DNA of 45,005 bases from a virus (taxonomy: Duplodnaviria > Heunggongvirae > Uroviricota > Caudoviricetes): the IMG/VR virus record IMGVR_UViG_2778261502_000007, positions 1-45,005 of that record; one strand, given 5' to 3'. This document shows positions 2,734 through 30,869 of the stretch, one piece after another. Every line of letters begins with the position of its first letter. The stretch's first letter is position 1. The notes under the pieces were generated by a model, which saw only the letters and a program-made list of their open reading frames with translations, did no database searches and was not told where the DNA came from. A program made the translations under genes and the position numbers.

Positions 2734-2834
2734 TGTTTTTTAACCTCAACTCAGATTAAAATTCGTTTTGTTCAGTGAATGATCTTGCCGGATACACACT
2801 GTTCATAGCCTGCGCCATACGCAGGCTATTTCTT

Positions 2835-3110
2835 TCAGATTTCACCGTTTAATTTCATTGCAATCAGAGTTGCCAGAAATCCGGCTTTTTTTTCTGCGGG
2901 CAGATTCTTTCCGATGTGAACCAGGCACATTTTTGTGACACCTTCATCAAGTGTTTTTACGTTGCCTGATGGACCGTCGATATCAACCACAGTGAATGGG
3001 GTTTCTTTATTTTCTGTTTTAATCACGTAGCCAATGCGCTTTCCTTCCAGATTAACCTCGTGAACAATGTCATCGGTAGTTACAACAGTGGCTTCATAAC
3101 TGGTAATCAT
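2835..3110 (-). CDS. racC: RacC-like small protein (91 aa)
   Basis: Internal ATG of track ORF 2835..3158; product MITSYEATVVTTDDIVHEVNLEGKRIG...; sits between recE and ydaE as in Rac. Confidence 0.6.
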   Translation of the reverse strand: MITSYEATVVTTDDIVHEVNLEGKRIGYVIKTENKETPFTVVDIDGPSGNVKTLDEGVTKMCLVHIGKNLPAEKKAGFLATLIAMKLNGEI

Positions 3111-3184
3111 GTTTTTCTCCTTAATTAAGGTTGAGCGAATCCCTGCCATTGCTGGCATAAATTCAGTTTCGAATAGTCAGTTAA

Positions 3185-3355
3185 TTAAAGTTCGTGTGCC
3201 ATCTGGTCTTTTTCGACACATATTTCACTACAATATTTTTTCATTTCCGTCGTTGGGATAACTCCACGCATGAAATGAAGTGGTCTTTTAATGCTTTTGC
3301 TTTCTTCAACTTCTTTATCGCAAAGGTGGTAAGCACATTTTATTTTCTTAGTCAT
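3185..3355 (-). CDS. ydaE: YdaE-like Cys-rich small protein (56 aa)
   Basis: Hand translation [56 protein letters not shown]; below track size cutoff; start overlaps kilR stop (ATGA). Confidence 0.55.
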   Translation of the reverse strand: MTKKIKCAYHLCDKEVEESKSIKRPLHFMRGVIPTTEMKKYCSEICVEKDQMAHEL

Positions 3356-3576
3356 CACCATGACTCCGCCTTTACAGGTAAACCATCACGACCGAGGAAG
3401 ACTTTGATCATGCAGTCAGTAATGCATGTTTTTGTGGTCAGGCTACGGATATAAAGTTTCCTCTTTTTAATATTATTTGCCGAGGCAATATATGTCCGGC
3501 CTTCATGAAGAACATAATCGCCAGGAGTCACACACTGACGTGGTATTTCATCAGTTCCGAAGTGATGTGCAATCAT
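3355..3576 (-). CDS. kilR: KilR-like division inhibitor (73 aa)
   Basis: Track ORF 3355..3588; second ATG ([15 protein letters not shown]...) has GGAG 7 nt upstream; ends ...PVKAESW. Confidence 0.6.
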
Positions 3577-3921
3577 AATTATCTCCATTTTTACAAATGA
3601 ACTTTGTTGATGCGGCGCCTGGTGCCTCCAGGTGACTGCAACCAGTTAACAATTACAGTCGGCTTTCCCACCCAAACCAATAAGGACTAACATGACTTTT
3701 AACTGTGCCGCGTGCGCTTAGCCGCATTCACCGCATCACAAAATTCACTTTAAAAAGGGCGGACATCAGTCGAACTTCAAGAAAAAACTGATGCCGCCAA
3801 GACTACACACAGCAGTGTTGTTATTCACAACCGGAGGCGCACTCCCACCATTTAAATTTAACAGACAAGACCGACTCTTTATGGATATCGGAAATGCGCC
3901 TTCGTGTTGTATGCCTGTCTT

Positions 3922-3949
3922 TTTACCACTTCAGGCTCGGTGGTATACT
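3922..3949 (+). promoter_or_regulatory. Sigma70-like promoter with extended -10 (TTTACC, 16 nt spacer, TGgTATACT)
   Basis: Motifs read directly, about 33 nt upstream of ATG 3982. Confidence 0.4.
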
Positions 3950-3981
3950 GGAGTTTCCACACAACCAGTAGGGAATTACTT

Positions 3982-4215
3982 ATGCCTATTCAATCTCAAC
4001 ACAAAAATATTGATTATCTTTCCGCCAGATTAGAGGCTACCGCGCTTGTTCTTGAAGAACTTGTTAAACTTCTTACGCCAGAGCAGCGTGAAAAACTGAA
4101 TCTGGCAATTGCCGGGCGTTGCCCAGGCGTGAAAAATGCGTCTCTCAGGAATAGAAATTCTCCCGCATATCAATTATTACAGTTCATCAATGATCGCGTC
4201 GGCTGCAGCGATTAA
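3982..4215 (+). CDS. Hypothetical 77 aa protein at sieB-equivalent position
   Basis: Internal ATG of track ORF 3904..4215 (MPIQSQHKNIDYLSARLEATALVLEEL...); own promoter; convergent with leftward operon. Confidence 0.5.
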   Translation: MPIQSQHKNIDYLSARLEATALVLEELVKLLTPEQREKLNLAIAGRCPGVKNASLRNRNSPAYQLLQFINDRVGCSD

Positions 4216-4482
4216 TTTTTCTAATGCCTCTTCGACATGATAATTATATGGTTGTAGTGACCTGAAATCTGCAATTGCATCAGCCAGGTTTCGTGCCATT
4301 ACGGCTGGCGCGATTTTTTTTGCTGCTGATACCCGGCTGGCGAGTTCCAGTGCGAGACGTGCCTGCCCTGGAGTTAACTCTCTTTCCTTTGCCATTGTTG
4401 ATGCCTGTACAGACAATTCATACGCCAGACAAAATACAGCATTATTCGTTTCTAGCGGATCAATACCCTGAGTAAATGTCAT
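4177..4482 (-). CDS. Hypothetical acidic 101 aa protein, first gene downstream of OL-like operators
   Basis: Track ORF 4177..4527; ATG at 4482 (MTFTQGIDPLETNNAVF...) preceded by GGGGAGAG; no Arg-rich motif. Confidence 0.5.
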   Translation of the reverse strand: MTFTQGIDPLETNNAVFCLAYELSVQASTMAKERELTPGQARLALELASRVSAAKKIAPAVMARNLADAIADFRSLQPYNYHVEEALEKLIAAADAIIDEL

Positions 4483-4649
4483 CTCATCTCTCCCCTTAAC
4501 GCCGGGTGGCGGAACTAACTGCTGCACTGCAAAATTTGAATCCCGCCGTCATGTTCATACGCCTCGGGCTGGCTACTTAACCCCTTACCACTGCCTGGTA
4601 ACTCGAAGTATTGCCCTGCGTTCTGTGGGGCGGGGTGGGTTGATAGGTA

Positions 4650-4695
4650 TATAATGTACTTTATGTTCATTGTTGTAAAGTACTTTAAGTACATT
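4650..4695. promoter_or_regulatory. OL-like operator cluster (three GTAC-core sites)
   Basis: ATGTACT at 4654-4660, AGTACT at 4679-4684, AGTACA at 4688-4693; GTAC cores spaced 24 and 9 bp; same motif as 5190-5268. Confidence 0.4.
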
Positions 4696-4769
4696 TTGTA
4701 TGTAAAAAAATGAGATGGGATAAAGTGAAGCACAAACCCGGAGGGGGACGCTACCGGATTTATGCTGGT

Positions 4770-5189
4770 TTAAGAGGCTTTTTGTTTTTTCTTTCGTGCT
4801 AACTCTTCGTAAATTGCATTGTACTTCTGTTTTTTCTCCTCAAGAGTTTTTAAAAGTTCATCTGTCTCACTGTCAGGGAGCTCGTCCAGAAGGTCAATGA
4901 TGATTTTTTGTCTTGGATTTAACTCCTGATAGAAACGTACCTGTCCACTTTCTTCTGTATCCTCTCCCAAAAGATAGGTTGGTGTTGTTCCAATTAGTGT
5001 TGCTAATTCCCTTAATTTCTCTCGGCGAGGAATTGTTTCGCCATTAAACCATTTGCTAACCGCTTTTGGTGTTAATTTCATTCGACGGGCAATTTCTGCC
5101 TGCCTTCCATGTTGTTCATAACCAGCGTTTTCACAGGCTAGCGCAAGCCTACTGGCGAACTCTTTACGCGCTTTATCTTCATGAACCAT
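4770..5189 (-). CDS. XRE-family HTH repressor (CI/DicA/RacR-like), 139 aa
   Basis: HTH segment QAEIARRMKLTPKAVSKWFNGETIP; C-terminal charged helical tail; divergent from Cro-like gene. Confidence 0.75.
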   Translation of the reverse strand: MVHEDKARKEFASRLALACENAGYEQHGRQAEIARRMKLTPKAVSKWFNGETIPRREKLRELATLIGTTPTYLLGEDTEESGQVRFYQELNPRQKIIIDLLDELPDSETDELLKTLEEKKQKYNAIYEELARKKKQKAS

Positions 5190-5268
5190 AAGTTCAATGA
5201 TATTCGCTCTTGAATGTACTGTCAGTTCTGTTATAACATGTACTCAAAGTTCACATTGTGAGGGTGAT
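5190..5268. promoter_or_regulatory. OR-like divergent promoter/operator region
   Basis: 79 bp between divergent repressor and cro-like starts; two ATGTACT sites (5214-5220, 5238-5244) spaced 24 bp. Confidence 0.5.
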
Positions 5269-5523
5269 ATGAACCAGAAAACACTTGAAGATGTAATCAA
5301 AACTGTTCGCGTTTCTGTTGTGGCCGACGTTTGTGGTGTCAGCCAAAGAGCAATCTACAAATGGATGGATAACGGAAAATTGCCTCGCACAGAATATACC
5401 GGCGAAACAAATTACGCTGAAAAAATCGCTCATGCATCAAACGGATTATTTTCTGCCGATGCAATTTTAACTATTGGCAGAAATAAAACTACTACGAAAA
5501 AGCGGATGGGAGTTGATTCATGA
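5269..5523 (+). CDS. Cro/YdaS-like HTH protein (84 aa)
   Basis: Internal ATG of track ORF 5197..5523; HTH VADVCGVSQRAIYKWMDNGKLP. Confidence 0.65.
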   Translation: MNQKTLEDVIKTVRVSVVADVCGVSQRAIYKWMDNGKLPRTEYTGETNYAEKIAHASNGLFSADAILTIGRNKTTTKKRMGVDS

Positions 5524-5942
5524 AAATCAAGCATGAGCACATCGAATCAGTGTTGTTAGCCCTGGCAGCCGAAAAAGGGCAGGCATGGGTAGCCAATGCA
5601 ATTACTGAAGAATATCTGCGCCAGGGGGGCGGCGAATTGCCCCTGGTTCCAGGCAAGGACTGGAACAATCAGCAGAATATCTATCACCGTTGGTTGAAAG
5701 GTGAAACGAAAACGCAAAGAGAAAAAATTCAGAAGCTGATCCCAGCAATTCTGGCAATCCTTCCGCGCGAGCTGCGTCACCGACTCTGCATCTTCGATAC
5801 CCTGGAACGCCGTGCATTACTGGCGGCGCAGGAAGCGTTGAGTACGGCGATTGATGCGCATGATGATGCAGTCCAGGCCGTTTACCGGAAAGCGCATTTC
5901 AGCGGCGGCGAGTCGTCCGGCGATTCTGTCGTAGTGCATTGA
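5520..5942 (+). CDS. ydaT: YdaT-like protein (140 aa; CII-position regulator)
   Basis: ATGA overlap with upstream gene; length and position match Rac ydaT as recalled. Confidence 0.55.
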   Translation: MKIKHEHIESVLLALAAEKGQAWVANAITEEYLRQGGGELPLVPGKDWNNQQNIYHRWLKGETKTQREKIQKLIPAILAILPRELRHRLCIFDTLERRALLAAQEALSTAIDAHDDAVQAVYRKAHFSGGESSGDSVVVH

Positions 5943-6815: not shown

Positions 6816-7562
6816 ATGAAAAATATTGCGACAGGCGGCGTTCTGGAACGTATCCGCAGACTGGCCCCGCCACATGTAACCGCGCCATTCAGGACGGTGG
6901 CGGAGTGGCGCGAGTGGCAACTTGCAGAAGGCCAGAAACGTTGTGAGGAGATCAACCGTCAGAATCGTCAGTTGCGGGTGGAAAAAATCCTGAATCGCTC
7001 CGGCATCCAGCCGTTGCACCGCAAATGCTCGTTTGCGAATTACCAGGTGCAGAACGACGGCCAGCGATACGCGTTGAGTCAGGCGAAATCTATCGCTGAC
7101 GAACTGGTTACCGGATGCATAAATTTCGCGTTCAGCGGAATGCCTGGTACCGGAAAAAACCATCTGGCGGCGGCTATCGGGAATCGCCTGCTGAAAGATG
7201 GCCAGACAGTGATTGTGGTTACCGTGGCGGATGTCATGAGTGCTCTACACGCCAGCTATGACGATGGGCAATCAGGCGAAAAATTTTTGCGGGAACTGTG
7301 CGAAGTGGATCTGCTGGTTCTTGATGAAATTGGCATTCAGCGCGAGACAAAAAACGAGCAGGTGGTGCTGCACCAGATTGTTGATCGCCGGACAGCGTCG
7401 ATGCGCAGCGTGGGGATGCTGACAAACCTGAACTATGAGGCCATGAAAACATTGCTTGGCGAGCGGATTATGGATCGCATGACCATGAACGGCGGGCGCT
7501 GGGTGAATTTTAAATGGGAGAGCTGGCGCCCGAATGTTGGTCAGCCAGGAGTTGAAAAGTAA
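6816..7562 (+). CDS. ydaV: DnaC-like helicase loader (248 aa)
   Basis: Walker [14 protein letters not shown], Walker [10 protein letters not shown]; strong SD upstream. Confidence 0.8.
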
Positions 7563-7584
7563 TTTTTACCGGGAGGAAATTTTA

Positions 7585-8346
7585 ATGGAGACCGTTTTTG
7601 ACGCACTGAAAGCAATGGGAAAAGCCACGTCGGTAGAACTGGCAGCGCGACTTGATATCAGTCGTGAAGAAGTGCTGAACGAGCTGTGGGAACTGAAAAA
7701 GGCTGGCTTCGTTGATAAAAGCGTATACACCTGGCGTGTGGCTGATAACAACGTTCAGCAGGAACAGCCAGCACAGGCAGTACTGCCGGAAGAAACCACT
7801 ACGGCAACAGTGACGAAAATTTCGGAGAGCGATTTAACTTCGACGATTGAACAGCGTGGTCCACAAACGGCGGATGAACTGGCTACGCTGTTCGGTACAA
7901 CATCCCGCAAAGTGGCTTCAACGCTGGCAATGGCAATCAGCAAAGGTCGTCTGATTCGCGTTAATCAGAACGGTAAATTTCGTTACTGCATGCCGGGCGG
8001 TAATTTACCAGCAGAGCCGAAAGTTAAATCGATAGCGGAAACCGATGGTAAAGCCTTTCCTCAACCAGCAGGTGTTGCGTTACCGGTACAGGAAGCTGCA
8101 ACACAGGAAGATATTAAAACAGAAACTGTAGCGGACATTGTGCAGTCGTTGCCATCGTTCACCGAAACACAAGCGGATGACCTGGTTTTGCCATCGCTGC
8201 ATATGGCAAATCGCGAACTGCGTCGGGCGAAAAATCATGTCCAGAAGTGGGAGCGTGTCTGCGCCGCGCTGCGGGAACTGAACAAGCACCGGGATATTGT
8301 TCGACAGATTGTCTATTCCTCCAGTCGTATTGTGTCGGACAAGTGA
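7585..8346 (+). CDS. Hypothetical protein with two tandem winged-helix-like segments
   Basis: ATG 7585 after GGGAGG; segments [30 protein letters not shown] and [32 protein letters not shown]. Confidence 0.5.
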
Positions 8347-8361
8347 TTGCCGGAGGCGCTT

Positions 8362-8784
8362 ATGGCAAAAGTATTTACACAAGAAGAGCGGGAAAAAATT
8401 AAGGGGCAGGTTGTTGAACTCGTGCGCCAGAGTGGGCGCGAGACGTTACGACAACTGGAAGCCAAGACAGGTGCGACAAGATATTTAATGAGCGTTCTCG
8501 CCAGAGAGCTGGTTGCCAGTGGCGATGTATACAATTCTGGCTACGGGTTATTTCCCTCTGAACAGGCTCGTAAGGACTGGCAAAACGCCCGCAAAAAACT
8601 CTCGAGGGCAAAGGCGAAGAAACCGGCTGTGGTTGATCCGGGCTTTATCTGGTCGTTACCAGATGGAGAAATACGTCGTTATGACAGGCGTCTAAACATA
8701 ATCTGTCGCGAGTGCCGGAAGAGCGAAACTATGCGGCGTGTACTGGCGTTCTACCAGGGGAATTTTCAGGAGGTGTTATCGTGA
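8362..8784 (+). CDS. Hypothetical 140 aa protein
   Basis: ATG 8362 with GGAGG 6 nt upstream; track ORF starts at TTG 8347. Confidence 0.45.
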   Translation: MAKVFTQEEREKIKGQVVELVRQSGRETLRQLEAKTGATRYLMSVLARELVASGDVYNSGYGLFPSEQARKDWQNARKKLSRAKAKKPAVVDPGFIWSLPDGEIRRYDRRLNIICRECRKSETMRRVLAFYQGNFQEVLS

Positions 8785-9332
8785 GTGAAATTAACCATCA
8801 GGTACTACGTGAGATAGCAAAACAGGCAACACAGGGCGAATGGGTCGCATTTATTTCGACGGGTACTGGTACGTATGCGGTGCATACGCCCGGTGATAAA
8901 CGATGTGAAGACGTTATCAAATGGCCCGGTTTTGACGGACAGAAAAACGCAGAGAACAACGCTCGTTATATCGCAGCTTTCAACCCTGCAGTAGTGCAGG
9001 CGCTGCTGGATGAGCGGGAAGCCCAAAACAAGCATATAGGAGAGTTGGAGGCTAATCTTGTGGCGCTGGCGGCGGAGAATGCAGAGGTGAAGGCGATATG
9101 TGATGACCGTCGCAGGTTTATCATGAATGTGGTGCAACTTGGGCATATCAAAGCGCCAGCAATGAAAACAAAATCGGGGCTTGAAACAATTCGTATTGCT
9201 ATATCACCACAAAAGCCCACTCCGGCCACCGATGTTTTTCTGGCTGAAGTGCGGGCGTTGCGTTTAACGACCTTTGCGCGGCGTTTGTCAGGCACGCAAA
9301 AGTTGCAGGGCTGGATGATGTCGATACCGTAA
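8781..9332 (+). CDS. Ead/Ea22-like protein
   Basis: GTG start after AGGAGG; N-terminus SEINHQVLREIAKQATQGEWVAF plus coiled-coil segment resemble Ead/Ea22 family as recalled. Confidence 0.45.
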   Translation: MSEINHQVLREIAKQATQGEWVAFISTGTGTYAVHTPGDKRCEDVIKWPGFDGQKNAENNARYIAAFNPAVVQALLDEREAQNKHIGELEANLVALAAENAEVKAICDDRRRFIMNVVQLGHIKAPAMKTKSGLETIRIAISPQKPTPATDVFLAEVRALRLTTFARRLSGTQKLQGWMMSIP

Positions 9333-13141: not shown

Positions 13142-13217
<76 letters not shown>

Positions 13218-13220
13218 TAT

Positions 13221-13295
<75 letters not shown>

Positions 13296-13660
13296 GCAAA
13301 ACAAATGAGGTATAGGTTTTTCAGCACTGGCGTTTTTTTCGCGGGAAAGGTCTCGTATATCCTTTATCGCTCTCCCGAATTATAATGGAGACCAGTTATG
13401 ATTTCGGTGCTGTGTTTTTTGATACTATCGGAATAGTGCATTATTGGTGGGATTTTTTTGATGTTTCCTGGCAGGGGCTGATTATGCACTATCCCGATGT
13501 TATTAACATCACAAAATGAGGTGAGCCCCATGTGCGGGGGTGGTTTAAGTGGTTGTTTAGCGGGGAAACTACAGTATCTGATGGTATGTCAGGTATTTCG
13601 GGAGGCACCCGACACCTCACCTATATTATAATAATACTCTTCAGCACTTACTGATTTGAC

Positions 13661-13688
13661 CACCGCCTTAACAGGCGGTTTTTTTTCG
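13661..13688 (+). terminator. Intrinsic terminator
   Basis: CCGCC-TTAACA-GGCGG plus T8. Confidence 0.5.
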
Positions 13689-13859
13689 GTAATTTGCAGA
13701 ATTGTACGCTGAATAAGCATTACATCGTTAAATTTATAACTTATTCCGAATATGCGGTGCTTGCTTATTGTTAGCTTGCTGACATTTCTGTATCTTGCTG
13801 CGCCGCAGGTTTCCCCTGTAACGACGCTTGTATGATGAATCATTTAAACTTTGTAATTT

Positions 13860-13891
13860 GCCAGCCAGTCTCTGGTGGCTGGCTTTTTTTT
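13860..13891 (+). terminator. Intrinsic terminator
   Basis: GCCAGCCA-loop-TGGCTGGC plus T8. Confidence 0.55.
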
Positions 13892-13945
13892 GCAAGGTGT
13901 TCTGATAGTTCTGTTCGTCAGACTGGATTCCCGCAGAACAAAAAG

Positions 13946-14027
13946 CCGTCACTAACTCATTGGGTAAGAGTGCATAACACATATTGTTGTTTTGTGGTGC
14001 GGGGTTCGAGTCCCCGGTGACGGTCCA
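13946..14027 (+). other. tRNA-like element (tRNA remnant or atypical tRNA)
   Basis: Canonical acceptor CCGTCAC/GTGACGG, T-arm CGGGG-TTCGAGT-CCCCG and 3' TCCA, but anticodon arm does not fold canonically. Confidence 0.3.
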
Positions 14028-29532: not shown

Positions 29533-30869
29533 TGGGATTTAATATCGTCACGGTGAATGTGTCCCAGACCATCGGGGCTATACCCTCGAATTTGCAGCAG
29601 ATGTCTGCGGTTCTCTCGTTTGGCTCCACGACTAATGAGCCGGGGAAGCCTGTATTACTCACCAGCAATCAGGATATTAACGATCTGGTTAAAAATCCGA
29701 TTGCTGCGTTGTCGGCGGCTGCCGCAGGAAAATCTGCGGCAAACGTCACCGTTACGATGACGCTTCCGGAAGGGAGCAACATCCGACGCGAAAACAGTTC
29801 TGAGGTGAAAATTGTTGTTTCCGGGTGTTCGCCCGACGCGTGGAATGGCGAATATACTGCTACCGTCACGGATGAAAAAACACTGACCTGGACGATTGCT
29901 GATTCTCAGCTTTCCGGTTCGCCAGTGACACTGGGGCAGTTTTCCATTGTCGGCAGTGAAAATCTGGTGACGGCAGTAAACATGTTTTTTGCCCAGGGAA
30001 ATTCAGTTGGGATTTACCTGCTGGAGCTGGGAGTACAGAAAGGCGGGGTCAGTAAGGAAATCGCTGCACTGAAAGCTTATATGGAAGATCCGCTCCTGCG
30101 GTTTTATGCGTATCTGGTGCCGCAGCCGTGGGATGGTGACGCAGAATTTATCAGTCTGGCAAAACTCCACACCGCCAACGAAGCGATGCAGTATTTCTTC
30201 GTGCTGACGAAAACGCCGGACGACACGAATTACGTTTCGCCTTATGCCGGTATTAAGTCGGTTATTGCAACGGCGGATGATACGTACCCGGCGACAAACG
30301 CGGCAGCAGCCGTAATGTGGAACTATGTTTCCGCATCACCTTCAGAAATCAACAAGGTGCCGCCGATGGCATTTCGCTATCTGCAGGCGGTAAATGCCCA
30401 CAAGGGCAAAAATTCCATTCTGACCACGATGACGAAGCAGAATATTAACTACGTCGACACGGGGGCTGAGGGTGGAATTTCCAACACGATTCTGGTGAAA
30501 GGCGTTACCAGTGACGGTAACGATATGACGTACTGGTATTCCGTGGACTGGGTGCAGATTAATGTCGATATGCAGCTCGCCAACACGGTGATCAACGGCA
30601 GCAATAACCCAATTAACCCGCTTTACTACAACCAGGACGGGATCGACCGTCTACAGCAGGTCGCACAGGCGGTGTTCAATACGGGCGTATCTTACGGCCT
30701 GGTCAACGGTCAGCCTGTCGTCGATGCAGTGCCTTTCCGCCAGTATATCAACACTAATCCGAATGATTACGGTATCGGGCGTTATGCGGGCCTTTCGGCC
30801 TCCTATACGCCGATGCGCGGATTTGTCGAAATCATTTTTAACATCAATGTGACAATGCAGCTTTCGTGA
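29532..30869 (+). CDS. Tail sheath protein (putative)
   Basis: 445 aa followed by 147 aa tube-like gene, chaperone with frameshift, then tape measure. Confidence 0.5.
   Translation: MGFNIVTVNVSQTIGAIPSNLQQMSAVLSFGSTTNEPGKPVLLTSNQDINDLVKNPIAALSAAAAGKSAANVTVTMTLPEGSNIRRENSSEVKIVVSGCSPDAWNGEYTATVTDEKTLTWTIADSQLSGSPVTLGQFSIVGSENLVTAVNMFFAQGNSVGIYLLELGVQKGGVSKEIAALKAYMEDPLLRFYAYLVPQPWDGDAEFISLAKLHTANEAMQYFFVLTKTPDDTNYVSPYAGIKSVIATADDTYPATNAAAAVMWNYVSASPSEINKVPPMAFRYLQAVNAHKGKNSILTTMTKQNINYVDTGAEGGISNTILVKGVTSDGNDMTYWYSVDWVQINVDMQLANTVINGSNNPINPLYYNQDGIDRLQQVAQAVFNTGVSYGLVNGQPVVDAVPFRQYINTNPNDYGIGRYAGLSASYTPMRGFVEIIFNINVTMQLS

Follow-up and report, generated by a model that had tools for sequence, protein, structure and literature searches.

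What does a lambdoid prophage keep in the place where the Rac prophage of Escherichia coli K-12 carries its superinfection exclusion gene sieB, and what decides when the occupant of that place is expressed? The question is raised by a stretch of 45,005 nucleotides (nt), positions 1 to 45,005 of IMG/VR virus record IMGVR_UViG_2778261502_000007, which is a Rac-like lambdoid prophage of E. coli and which, at its full length, is here called the window. In it a small rightward gene, rac10, faces a leftward neighbour, rac11; both names are taken from the annotation of phage Rac-SA53, where the products are hypothetical proteins. The locus is a cassette of a known kind, that of sieB and its antisense RNA sas in phage P22, and a variant of it, in which the cargo is unrelated and the antisense-RNA element has a promoter fused to it: the predicted promoter and leader of rac10 are embedded in a conserved element homologous to part of sas, which is the new observation of this analysis. 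With moderate confidence only, we read rac10 as an accessory (‘moron’) gene expressed in lysogens and silenced by sas-like antisense transcription when the early-left promoter, PL, fires, with an exclusion-like role as its most likely function, and as probably one of many exchangeable cargo genes that the same switch governs.

Two convergent genes in the place of sieB

That a protein of 77 amino acids is encoded here had been proposed from a reading of the sequence alone; its open reading frame (ORF) occupies 3982-4215 on the + strand (ATG at 3982, stop at 4213-4215), and position 3922, where that sequence-only reading began its feature, is the first base of the -35 hexamer of the putative promoter. 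The same reading placed the gene at the sieB position of Rac, and comparison with K-12 bears this out. Homology to Rac K-12 runs over 2800-3944, is interrupted at 3945-4479 and is back from 4480 to 4640; the interruption is the site of sieB, ydaF and ydaG in K-12, and homology restarts precisely where the first PL gene has its start codon (4480). From these break points it follows that rac10 and rac11 are one exchanged module, set between an element on their left and the PL leader on their right. With the kil/ral side on one flank, the first PL gene on the other and a rightward orientation, rac10 also fits the genomic definition of the sieB slot. Over 3700-4518 the window is 96-97% identical to prophages of cattle and Shiga toxin-producing E. 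coli strains and to Rac-SA53, and the rac10-rac11 module is rare, being carried by 18 of 5426 complete E. coli genomes. At one Salmonella prophage locus (L005) the pair stands directly beside a genuine sieB, whose product is recognised there by profile. Two loci of Salmonella Hull (L003 and L004, 6001-8549) have an unusual, rearranged prophage layout, in which the PL side of the pair holds two small ORFs and the genes for a Q-like antiterminator and replication protein P, all of them on the - strand.

The partner gene, rac11 (4177-4482, - strand; 101 amino acids from its ATG), is the first of the early-left operon. The two coding sequences meet tail to tail and share 4177-4215, an overlap put at about 39 nt beforehand and found to be exactly 39 nt, with the same length in the E. 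coli, Salmonella and Pantoea copies. The earlier description of rac10 as convergent with the early-left operon is right with regard to rac11 and falls short otherwise, in that rac10 lies antisense inside the operon (kilR, ydaE, racC and recE follow further downstream of PL) and not merely at its end. Across E. coli, Salmonella, Pantoea and metagenome sequences rac10 is accompanied by rac11 at 11 of 11 loci, always with the 39-nt overlap, within which the rac11 frame is conserved (LIAAADAxxDEL is nearly invariant) and the rac10 C-terminus is variable. At locus L110 a rac11 relative of 47% identity stands beside an unrelated zinc-ribbon cargo gene; the two genes are therefore linked, yet not strictly interdependent. 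That locus (7104-9137 in a Rac-like prophage) has the window’s upstream element and leader type, followed by the zinc-ribbon cargo and then the rac11 relative, and a RelE/ParE-like pair is inserted there ahead of the repressor. Within rac11, and antisense to it, a terminator-like hairpin followed by T8 is found at 4291-4321 (+ strand). A hairpin with a T-run lies 98-99 nt past the rac10 stop in copies from E. coli, Salmonella, Pantoea and the metagenome; the folding energies are between -14 and -18 kcal/mol, save in Pantoea (only -7.8), and this conservation may be due in part to coding constraint on rac11. If transcription stops there, the predicted rac10 mRNA would measure about 365 nt and overlap rac11 by about 145 nt.

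Both genes are real, and rac10 is under purifying selection. Codon alignments of the E. coli, metagenome, Salmonella and Pantoea copies give rac10 a ratio of non-synonymous to synonymous divergence (dN/dS) of 0.14-0.31, with synonymous divergence (dS) of up to 1.5-3; for rac11 the corresponding values are 0.22-0.39 and up to 1.1-1.6. NCBI annotates rac10 as a protein in many genomes, among them strain C7, whose counterpart is 97% identical (WP_001559054.1, hypothetical protein), and the window’s own Rac10 is identical to our protein cluster P0001. The family is very small: a search of 5.8 billion proteins gave 9 clusters (90% identity), and one of 1.84 billion representatives gave 6 (50% identity); all members are 74-90 amino acids long, come from Enterobacterales, bear uninformative names and have the core RLEA..(L/I)VLEEL(I/V)K.L(S/T)PEQR..L .. 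P.V .. YQL. Rac11 homologues form 6 clusters among 5.8 billion proteins, again with uninformative names.

Rac10 is a mildly basic (isoelectric point, pI, 8.7), soluble protein with a maximum Kyte-Doolittle value over 19 residues of 1.05, and its AlphaFold2 model is small and all-helical (mean predicted local distance difference test score, pLDDT, 74.7); a Foldseek search of the PDB and BFVD with this model gave no match with an expect value (E) below 1. Rac11 is acidic (pI 4.7), soluble and helical, and its model was too poor for a fold search (pLDDT 57.7). Profile searches of Pfam, PHROGs, PADLOC and NCBIfam returned nothing above threshold for either protein. SieB itself was not recognised in Rac10 (no PF14163 match in the Pfam, PHROG and NCBIfam searches), and a SieB-type membrane protein was rejected on size and character too, with 77 soluble residues against the 160-195 residues and hydrophobic N-terminal segments of SieB. 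Two sub-threshold Pfam matches, both with E of about 0.08-0.09, were likewise set aside: the IraP anti-adaptor (PF10796; 13.9 bits against a cut-off of 23.2) and LTXXQ (PF07813; 14.2 against 24.3). Sequence-profile matches in the PDB, confined to designed helical proteins for Rac10 and to a weak SH3 domain for Rac11 (E 0.17), were treated as composition artefacts. A protein of 1652 amino acids (P0021) has 6 separate segments that match the Rac10 profile (E 7.8e-07), which is probably helical-repeat composition and not homology.

A conserved element homologous to the 3′ part of P22 sas

Directly ahead of rac10, at 3912-3975, lies a block of about 64 nt that extends from just upstream of the -35 hexamer to the Shine-Dalgarno sequence and is nearly invariant across rac10 loci: TGCCTGTCTTTTTACCACTTCAGGCTCGGTGGTATACTGGAGTTtcCACACAACCAGTAgGGAA. 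In the locus alignment the rac10 coding sequence and the DNA upstream of the block diverge freely. Identity of the block is 88-95% among E. coli, Pantoea and metagenome copies, and 94% between the window and Pantoea; the rac10 coding sequence of the window, by comparison, has a dS of about 3 from the Pantoea copy and of 0.67 from the metagenome one. Read on the + strand the block holds the putative promoter and leader of rac10, and on the - strand it corresponds to the structured 3′ part of sas. A covariance model (R1), built from 45 sequences and used to align 66 and then 77 instances, scores 83.7 bits on the window’s block (E 7.5e-17) and 72.6 bits on P22 at 29652-29713 (-), within the sas RNA. 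P22 sas is a 127-nt antisense RNA sequenced from P22-infected cells (PMC13397905, Table 2). The published RNA maps exactly to P22 29636-29762 (-), and its span reaches from the start codon of sieB across the promoter to about 17 nt beyond the block, by which mapping the block is the 3′ portion of sas; the homology is limited to these 3′ 64 nt, and the 5′ part of the RNA is cargo-specific. In the P22 record the sieB promoter (P_sieB, 29690-29720) and its transcription start (29727) are both annotated downstream of the block, so in P22 the block is not the sieB promoter. An Rfam scan of window positions 3000-5600 gave no match in the block, and readings of it as a LexA box or a nut site were rejected on sequence.

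The element is widespread. Of 5426 E. coli genomes 1731 contain its first half, as do 137 phage records, and the block is found upstream of lambda sieB, P22 sieB, e14 ymfI and SfII_36, in a variant form before the sieB gene of Rac K-12, and before genes of Klebsiella phages, Cronobacter phages and one P2-like prophage. The last of these, in E. coli 04-00955 (L137, 1491-1554), has a divergent block in a P2-like context, in which a gene convergent with a 64-amino-acid cargo ORF has a Cox-family gene after it; lambdoid phages are thus not the only carriers of the element. A scan of GTDB genomes seeded with KilR added a single new divergent element (L157, in Leclercia), and a SieB alignment proved too divergent to serve as a seed.

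A survey of 128 block instances in fetched loci distinguishes two architectures. In the long type, represented by P22, lambda and the majority of sieB genes, a hairpin and then a separate promoter come after the block, and the distance from the start of the block to the ATG is about 100 nt. In the short type, which includes the window, e14 ymfI, SfII_36 and many others, GGTGG runs directly into TAT..T to give a TG-extended -10 sequence, the -35 hexamer lies inside the block and the offset of the ATG is fixed at 66-71 nt. The first ORF behind the block belongs to one of 25 or more unrelated families, as judged by BLAST clustering and by hhalign against the Rac10 profile. Long-type cargo consists of SieB (160-195 amino acids) and SieB-like membrane proteins, and short-type cargo includes many soluble proteins of 59-163 amino acids. 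Ten cargo representatives searched against Pfam and PADLOC gave no significant match save weak sub-threshold zinc-ribbon matches and one match to the candidate-defence family PDC-M14A, the latter for a single cargo family. Several leader types, that of the window included, are common to different cargo families. A helix-Pro-helix pattern that seemed common to Rac10 and other short-type cargo was dropped, as hhalign probability was at most 4% for all 20 families. Some gene calls (P0020 and locus L112) take as their start an ATG within the -10 region (TATGCTGGAG...), and their N-terminal extensions, MLEF.H.QQG.., are spurious, being translated conserved leader; the P0020 proteins suggest that distant Rac10 relatives also sit behind the block.

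The putative promoter, P_rac10 (3922-3949, + strand), consists of a -35 hexamer TTTACC (3922-3927), a 16-nt spacer, TG at 3942-3943 and a -10 hexamer TATACT (3944-3949), and matches the consensus at 9 of 12 positions. It had been described as a strong extended -10 promoter, and of that description the site stands, TG and TATACT being conserved in short-type loci, while the strength of the match taken alone does not, as a consensus scan of 3300-5300 finds 5 promoter-like sites against 3.3 +/- 1.9 in shuffles, which is not beyond chance. Our best evidence lies elsewhere. Positions 3-6 of the -10 hexamer also serve as one arm of a covarying hairpin, and the TG and -10 positions T1, A2 and T6 are nonetheless retained almost throughout the short-type loci, with many unrelated genes downstream; because they persist despite this second role, P_rac10 is likely to be a functional promoter. 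Transcription would start at about 3955-3957, and a Shine-Dalgarno-like AGGGA, read from the sequence at 3970-3974 (+ strand), stands 7 nt ahead of the rac10 ATG, with AAGGAA in the equivalent place in other short-type loci.

That hairpin, H3 (3946-3970, - strand; UACUGG-13 nt-CCAGUA), occupies the 3′ side of the block in the + strand sense, and it covaries. Five of its six pairs have changes on both sides, with stem variants that include CTGG/CCAG, CTTGG/CCAAG, TCTCG/CGAGA and CCTTTT/AAAAGG, and its covariation score is 0.18 against 0.079 +/- 0.006 in shuffled alignments (0 of 500 reach 0.18), every slid control being lower; the alignments were fitted to the covariance model and so lean towards structure. 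Counting hairpins was too permissive as a control, as 76% of shuffles also give one of at least 4 bp. H3 can form only in the - strand RNA, because the rac10 mRNA, with its predicted start at about 3956, holds just the 3′ arm, and in the - strand RNA the loop of H3 is complementary to the predicted 5′ end of that mRNA. Next to it, interleaved complementarity at 3913-3944 (- strand) describes a candidate H-type pseudoknot, with stem S_B pairing GCCTG (3913-3917) with CAGGC (3932-3936), stem S_A pairing ACCAC (3925-3929) with GTGGT (3940-3944), in + strand coordinates, and a loop 3 that is A-rich in the - sense. The topology is kept in four divergent sequence solutions, namely those of Rac K-12 (GCCCGG/CCGGGC with ACCACC/GGTGGT), of the P2-like L137, where both stems are changed compensatorily (GCCGGG/CCCGGC with ACCACG/CGTGGT), of the Leclercia element (ACCCGC/GCGGGT) and of four viral contigs (ACCGC/GCGGT); the pseudoknot, partly supported, is a hypothesis.

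Proposed control and possible function of rac10

The position of the block has a consequence for any transcript from PL. As the block ends 7 nt short of the rac10 ATG, a PL-derived - strand RNA that reaches it must cover both the Shine-Dalgarno sequence and the start codon. We suggest the following course of events. In a lysogen the repressor would hold PL off, and the constitutive-looking P_rac10 would yield the mRNA of about 365 nt that ends inside rac11, and hence Rac10. When PL fires, on induction or from an incoming relative with the same leader, transcription would pass through rac11, run antisense across all of rac10 and the block, and continue towards the KilS/DicF-like RNA and kilR. 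In the antisense RNA, sequence complementary to the ribosome-binding site and start codon of rac10 would precede a 3′ domain made of H3 and the possible pseudoknot, and Rac10 synthesis could be shut off by pairing, cleavage of the RNA duplex and transcriptional collision together, the H3/block domain plausibly contributing to pairing (H3 loop against mRNA 5′ end) and to stability of the 3′ end. The sequence-only reading had allowed for antisense interference through the 39-nt overlap; the architecture speaks for such effects more strongly than could be seen then, given that promoter and leader are embedded in the sas element as well, and the overlap is probably the lesser contribution, as the whole gene with its ribosome-binding site is antisense to PL read-through. 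Rac10 itself would be useful to the lysogen and harmful to lytic growth, for example through exclusion or abortive infection of other phages. A protective role, which the sequence-only reading had also proposed from the locus, is drawn from position, by analogy with SieB, and from the consideration that a function switched off for lytic growth probably harms it; as an assignment of function to Rac10, defence is speculative.

Likeness to the P22 and lambda sieB-sas-esc cassette is extensive. The arrangement in P22 was reportedly described in 1993. Slot and orientation are the same, with a rightward gene antisense within the PL operon and beside its first gene, the upstream element is homologous and equals the 3′ part of sas on the - strand, and expression in the lysogen with antisense silencing in lytic growth would be expected for rac10 as well. 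The differences are equally plain: Rac10 is unrelated to SieB, a membrane protein (PF14163); the rac10 promoter is fused to the block, with the ATG 42 nt past GGTGG, and in P22 and lambda the promoter is separate and lies further downstream, the ATG being 76 nt past GGTGG; and the neighbouring PL gene is rac11 and not the N/gp24 antiterminator. In P22 sas is a discrete RNA of about 105-127 nt in lytic growth, where according to reviews of the original work it turns SieB translation off, and it switches synthesis from SieB to Esc, an internal in-frame antidote. Another counterpart is ymfI of e14, which has a short-type block with a TATGCT -10 hexamer, stands beside the repressor gene ymfK and shares 63 nt with ymfJ, the first PL gene, which converges on it; YmfI and YmfJ have no sequence similarity to Rac10 and Rac11, and a relationship between the pairs was rejected on that ground. 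RNA sequencing of K-12 lists both ymfI-ymfJ and sieB-ydaF as convergent excludons (PMC12288877), and late in the SOS response ymfJ is induced and ymfI hardly at all (PMC11002266), data which fit the general picture. In the corresponding comparison rac10 and rac11 overlap by 39 nt as coding sequences and the predicted terminator lies 98 nt into rac11, the transcript ends being predictions from sequence. Resemblance to variable cargo hotspots of prophages, such as the P2/P4 defence hotspots, lies in a fixed slot with conserved flanks and many unrelated small genes, and here, unlike there, the block flank is itself a promoter and antisense-RNA control element, and SieB alone among the block’s cargo is known to act in defence.

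Several observations weigh against this account. Neither profile nor structure searches found any similarity of Rac10 to defence or exclusion families. A consensus scan found no - strand promoter for a discrete sas-like RNA near 3985-4060; such an RNA would thus need to be processed from PL transcripts, and a dedicated - strand promoter inside each cargo is in any case unlikely, because the cargo genes are unrelated. P22 sas, too, is reportedly processed from PL transcripts, and for the window such processing is the probable origin of a sas-like RNA, whose existence we infer from the element. Rac10 has no internal Met or other start codon, and hence no evident Esc-type product, so the SieB/Esc translational switch of P22 is not literally applicable. 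As to structure, a nested fold of 3890-3990 (-) is no more stable than shuffles (z = +0.79), and the stems of the candidate pseudoknot contain uncompensated single changes (ACCCC, ACCTC, GCATG, GCTTG) and are otherwise almost invariant, which leaves the covariation evidence for them thin.

Other explanations have to be set against the same facts. That rac10 is unexpressed or a chance reading frame is scarcely credible: the ORF is small, has no family match and has a promoter match that is not significant alone, but it is intact, its dN/dS is well under 1 across lineages with saturated synonymous sites, its Shine-Dalgarno sequence and promoter are conserved, and it is annotated as a protein in many genomes. 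Purifying selection on the protein (dN/dS 0.14-0.31) also bears on the idea that function resides at the RNA level, P_rac10 and PL forming an excludon or insulator that damps leaky early-left expression of the toxic KilR, with the protein secondary. Conservation of the promoter block whatever the cargo, the presence of kilR and the KilS/DicF-like RNA just downstream on the PL side and the report of K-12 counterparts as excludons all suit this idea, yet sieB of P22 and of lambda has its own promoter downstream of the block, which is therefore not conserved as a promoter, and we regard an RNA-level role as decidedly unlikely.

Two further proposals keep the protein at the centre. Rac10 and Rac11 could be a two-protein module in which Rac11, as an early PL product, is the antidote to Rac10 during lytic growth, much as Esc is to SieB. 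The pair’s presence together at 11 of 11 loci with a constant overlap, the opposite charges (pI 8.7 and 4.7), the opposite regulation and the swapping of the module as one unit are what such a partnership would predict; linkage alone could account for the co-occurrence, however, the L110 rac11 relative has an unrelated zinc-ribbon neighbour and the Rac11 model is of low confidence, and we think an antidote unlikely and any Rac10-Rac11 interaction speculative. A type II toxin-antitoxin pair was rejected, as the genes are convergent and have separate promoters, one of them repressor-controlled, and profile searches with Rac10 and Rac11 gave no match to a toxin-antitoxin family. Somewhat unlikely, in our judgement, is that Rac10 is a lysogenic-conversion or host-modulating protein outside phage defence, such as a small binder of a host regulator, for which the sieB-type element merely ensures production in lysogens. 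A soluble, helical protein without membrane or enzymatic signature would be apt for this, the weak sub-threshold LTXXQ and IraP matches point the same way, and other cargo of the slot lacks significant Pfam or PADLOC matches (the sub-threshold zinc ribbons and the one PDC-M14A excepted). Those Pfam scores are nevertheless far under the curated cut-offs (13.9 against 23.2 bits), SieB, which alone among the occupants of the slot has been characterised, acts in exclusion, and an antisense off-switch linked to lytic growth makes better sense if the function it controls harms phage development.

Beyond rac10 as a lysogen-expressed gene silenced from PL, a wider proposal is put forward tentatively, as possible rather than probable: the 64-nt element may be a portable self-immunity switch, by which a hypervariable slot is marked in lambdoid prophages and some P2-like ones. 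If so, it would act as a promoter on the + strand and as a structured, possibly pseudoknotted, antisense 3′ domain on the - strand, and any gene harmful to lytic growth could be inserted behind it and be silenced automatically when PL fires. The sieB/sas arrangement of P22 would then be a general cassette of many enterobacterial prophages and not specific to one gene; Rac10 and at least 20 other unannotated cargo families would constitute an untapped reservoir of exclusion or abortive-infection proteins; and phages with a common leader type could silence each other’s cargo in trans. The block would furthermore make it simple to find, by sequence, genes of unknown function that lysogens express, rac10 included, and sas, an antisense RNA that is little characterised and without an Rfam family, would gain a structured domain.

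The surrounding early-left region

The remainder of the early-left region follows Rac. Leftward from the block, all on the - strand, come kilR (3355-3588), ydaE (3185-3361), a racC-like gene (2835-3158) and recE, which runs off the left edge of the window. Upstream of kilR two Rfam matches were seen on the - strand, one DicF-like at 3757-3849 (42.8 bits, below the gathering score of 48) and one STnc100-like at 3569-3755 (32.2 bits); they correspond to the KilS small RNA, or kilR 5′ untranslated region, of Rac K-12 (b4833; found by RNA interaction by ligation and sequencing, RIL-seq, PMC8175672).

On the other side of rac11, a PL-like promoter (TTTACA-17-CATTAT, 4651-4679, - strand) lies directly downstream, at lower coordinates, of the gene for a DicA-like repressor of 139 amino acids (4770-5189, - strand). 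The PL leader between promoter and rac11 (4480-4640, - strand) is 98.8% identical to that of Rac K-12, these 160 nt or so being kept despite different genes on either side (rac11 in place of ydaG, and another repressor), and it could contain a conserved regulatory site. The immunity region at 4641-5513, made up of the repressor gene and a following cro/YdaS-like gene on the + strand, is unlike both Rac K-12 and Rac-SA53, and the stretch at 5514-5940 that holds ydaT (5520-5942, + strand, with replication genes beyond it on the same strand) is conserved again, which makes a third mosaic break point inside 2 kb. Further along, in the late-regulatory part of the prophage, 13142-14027 (+ strand) carries three transfer RNA genes, Thr-TGT, Gly-TCC and one of Tyr type with anticodon ATA.

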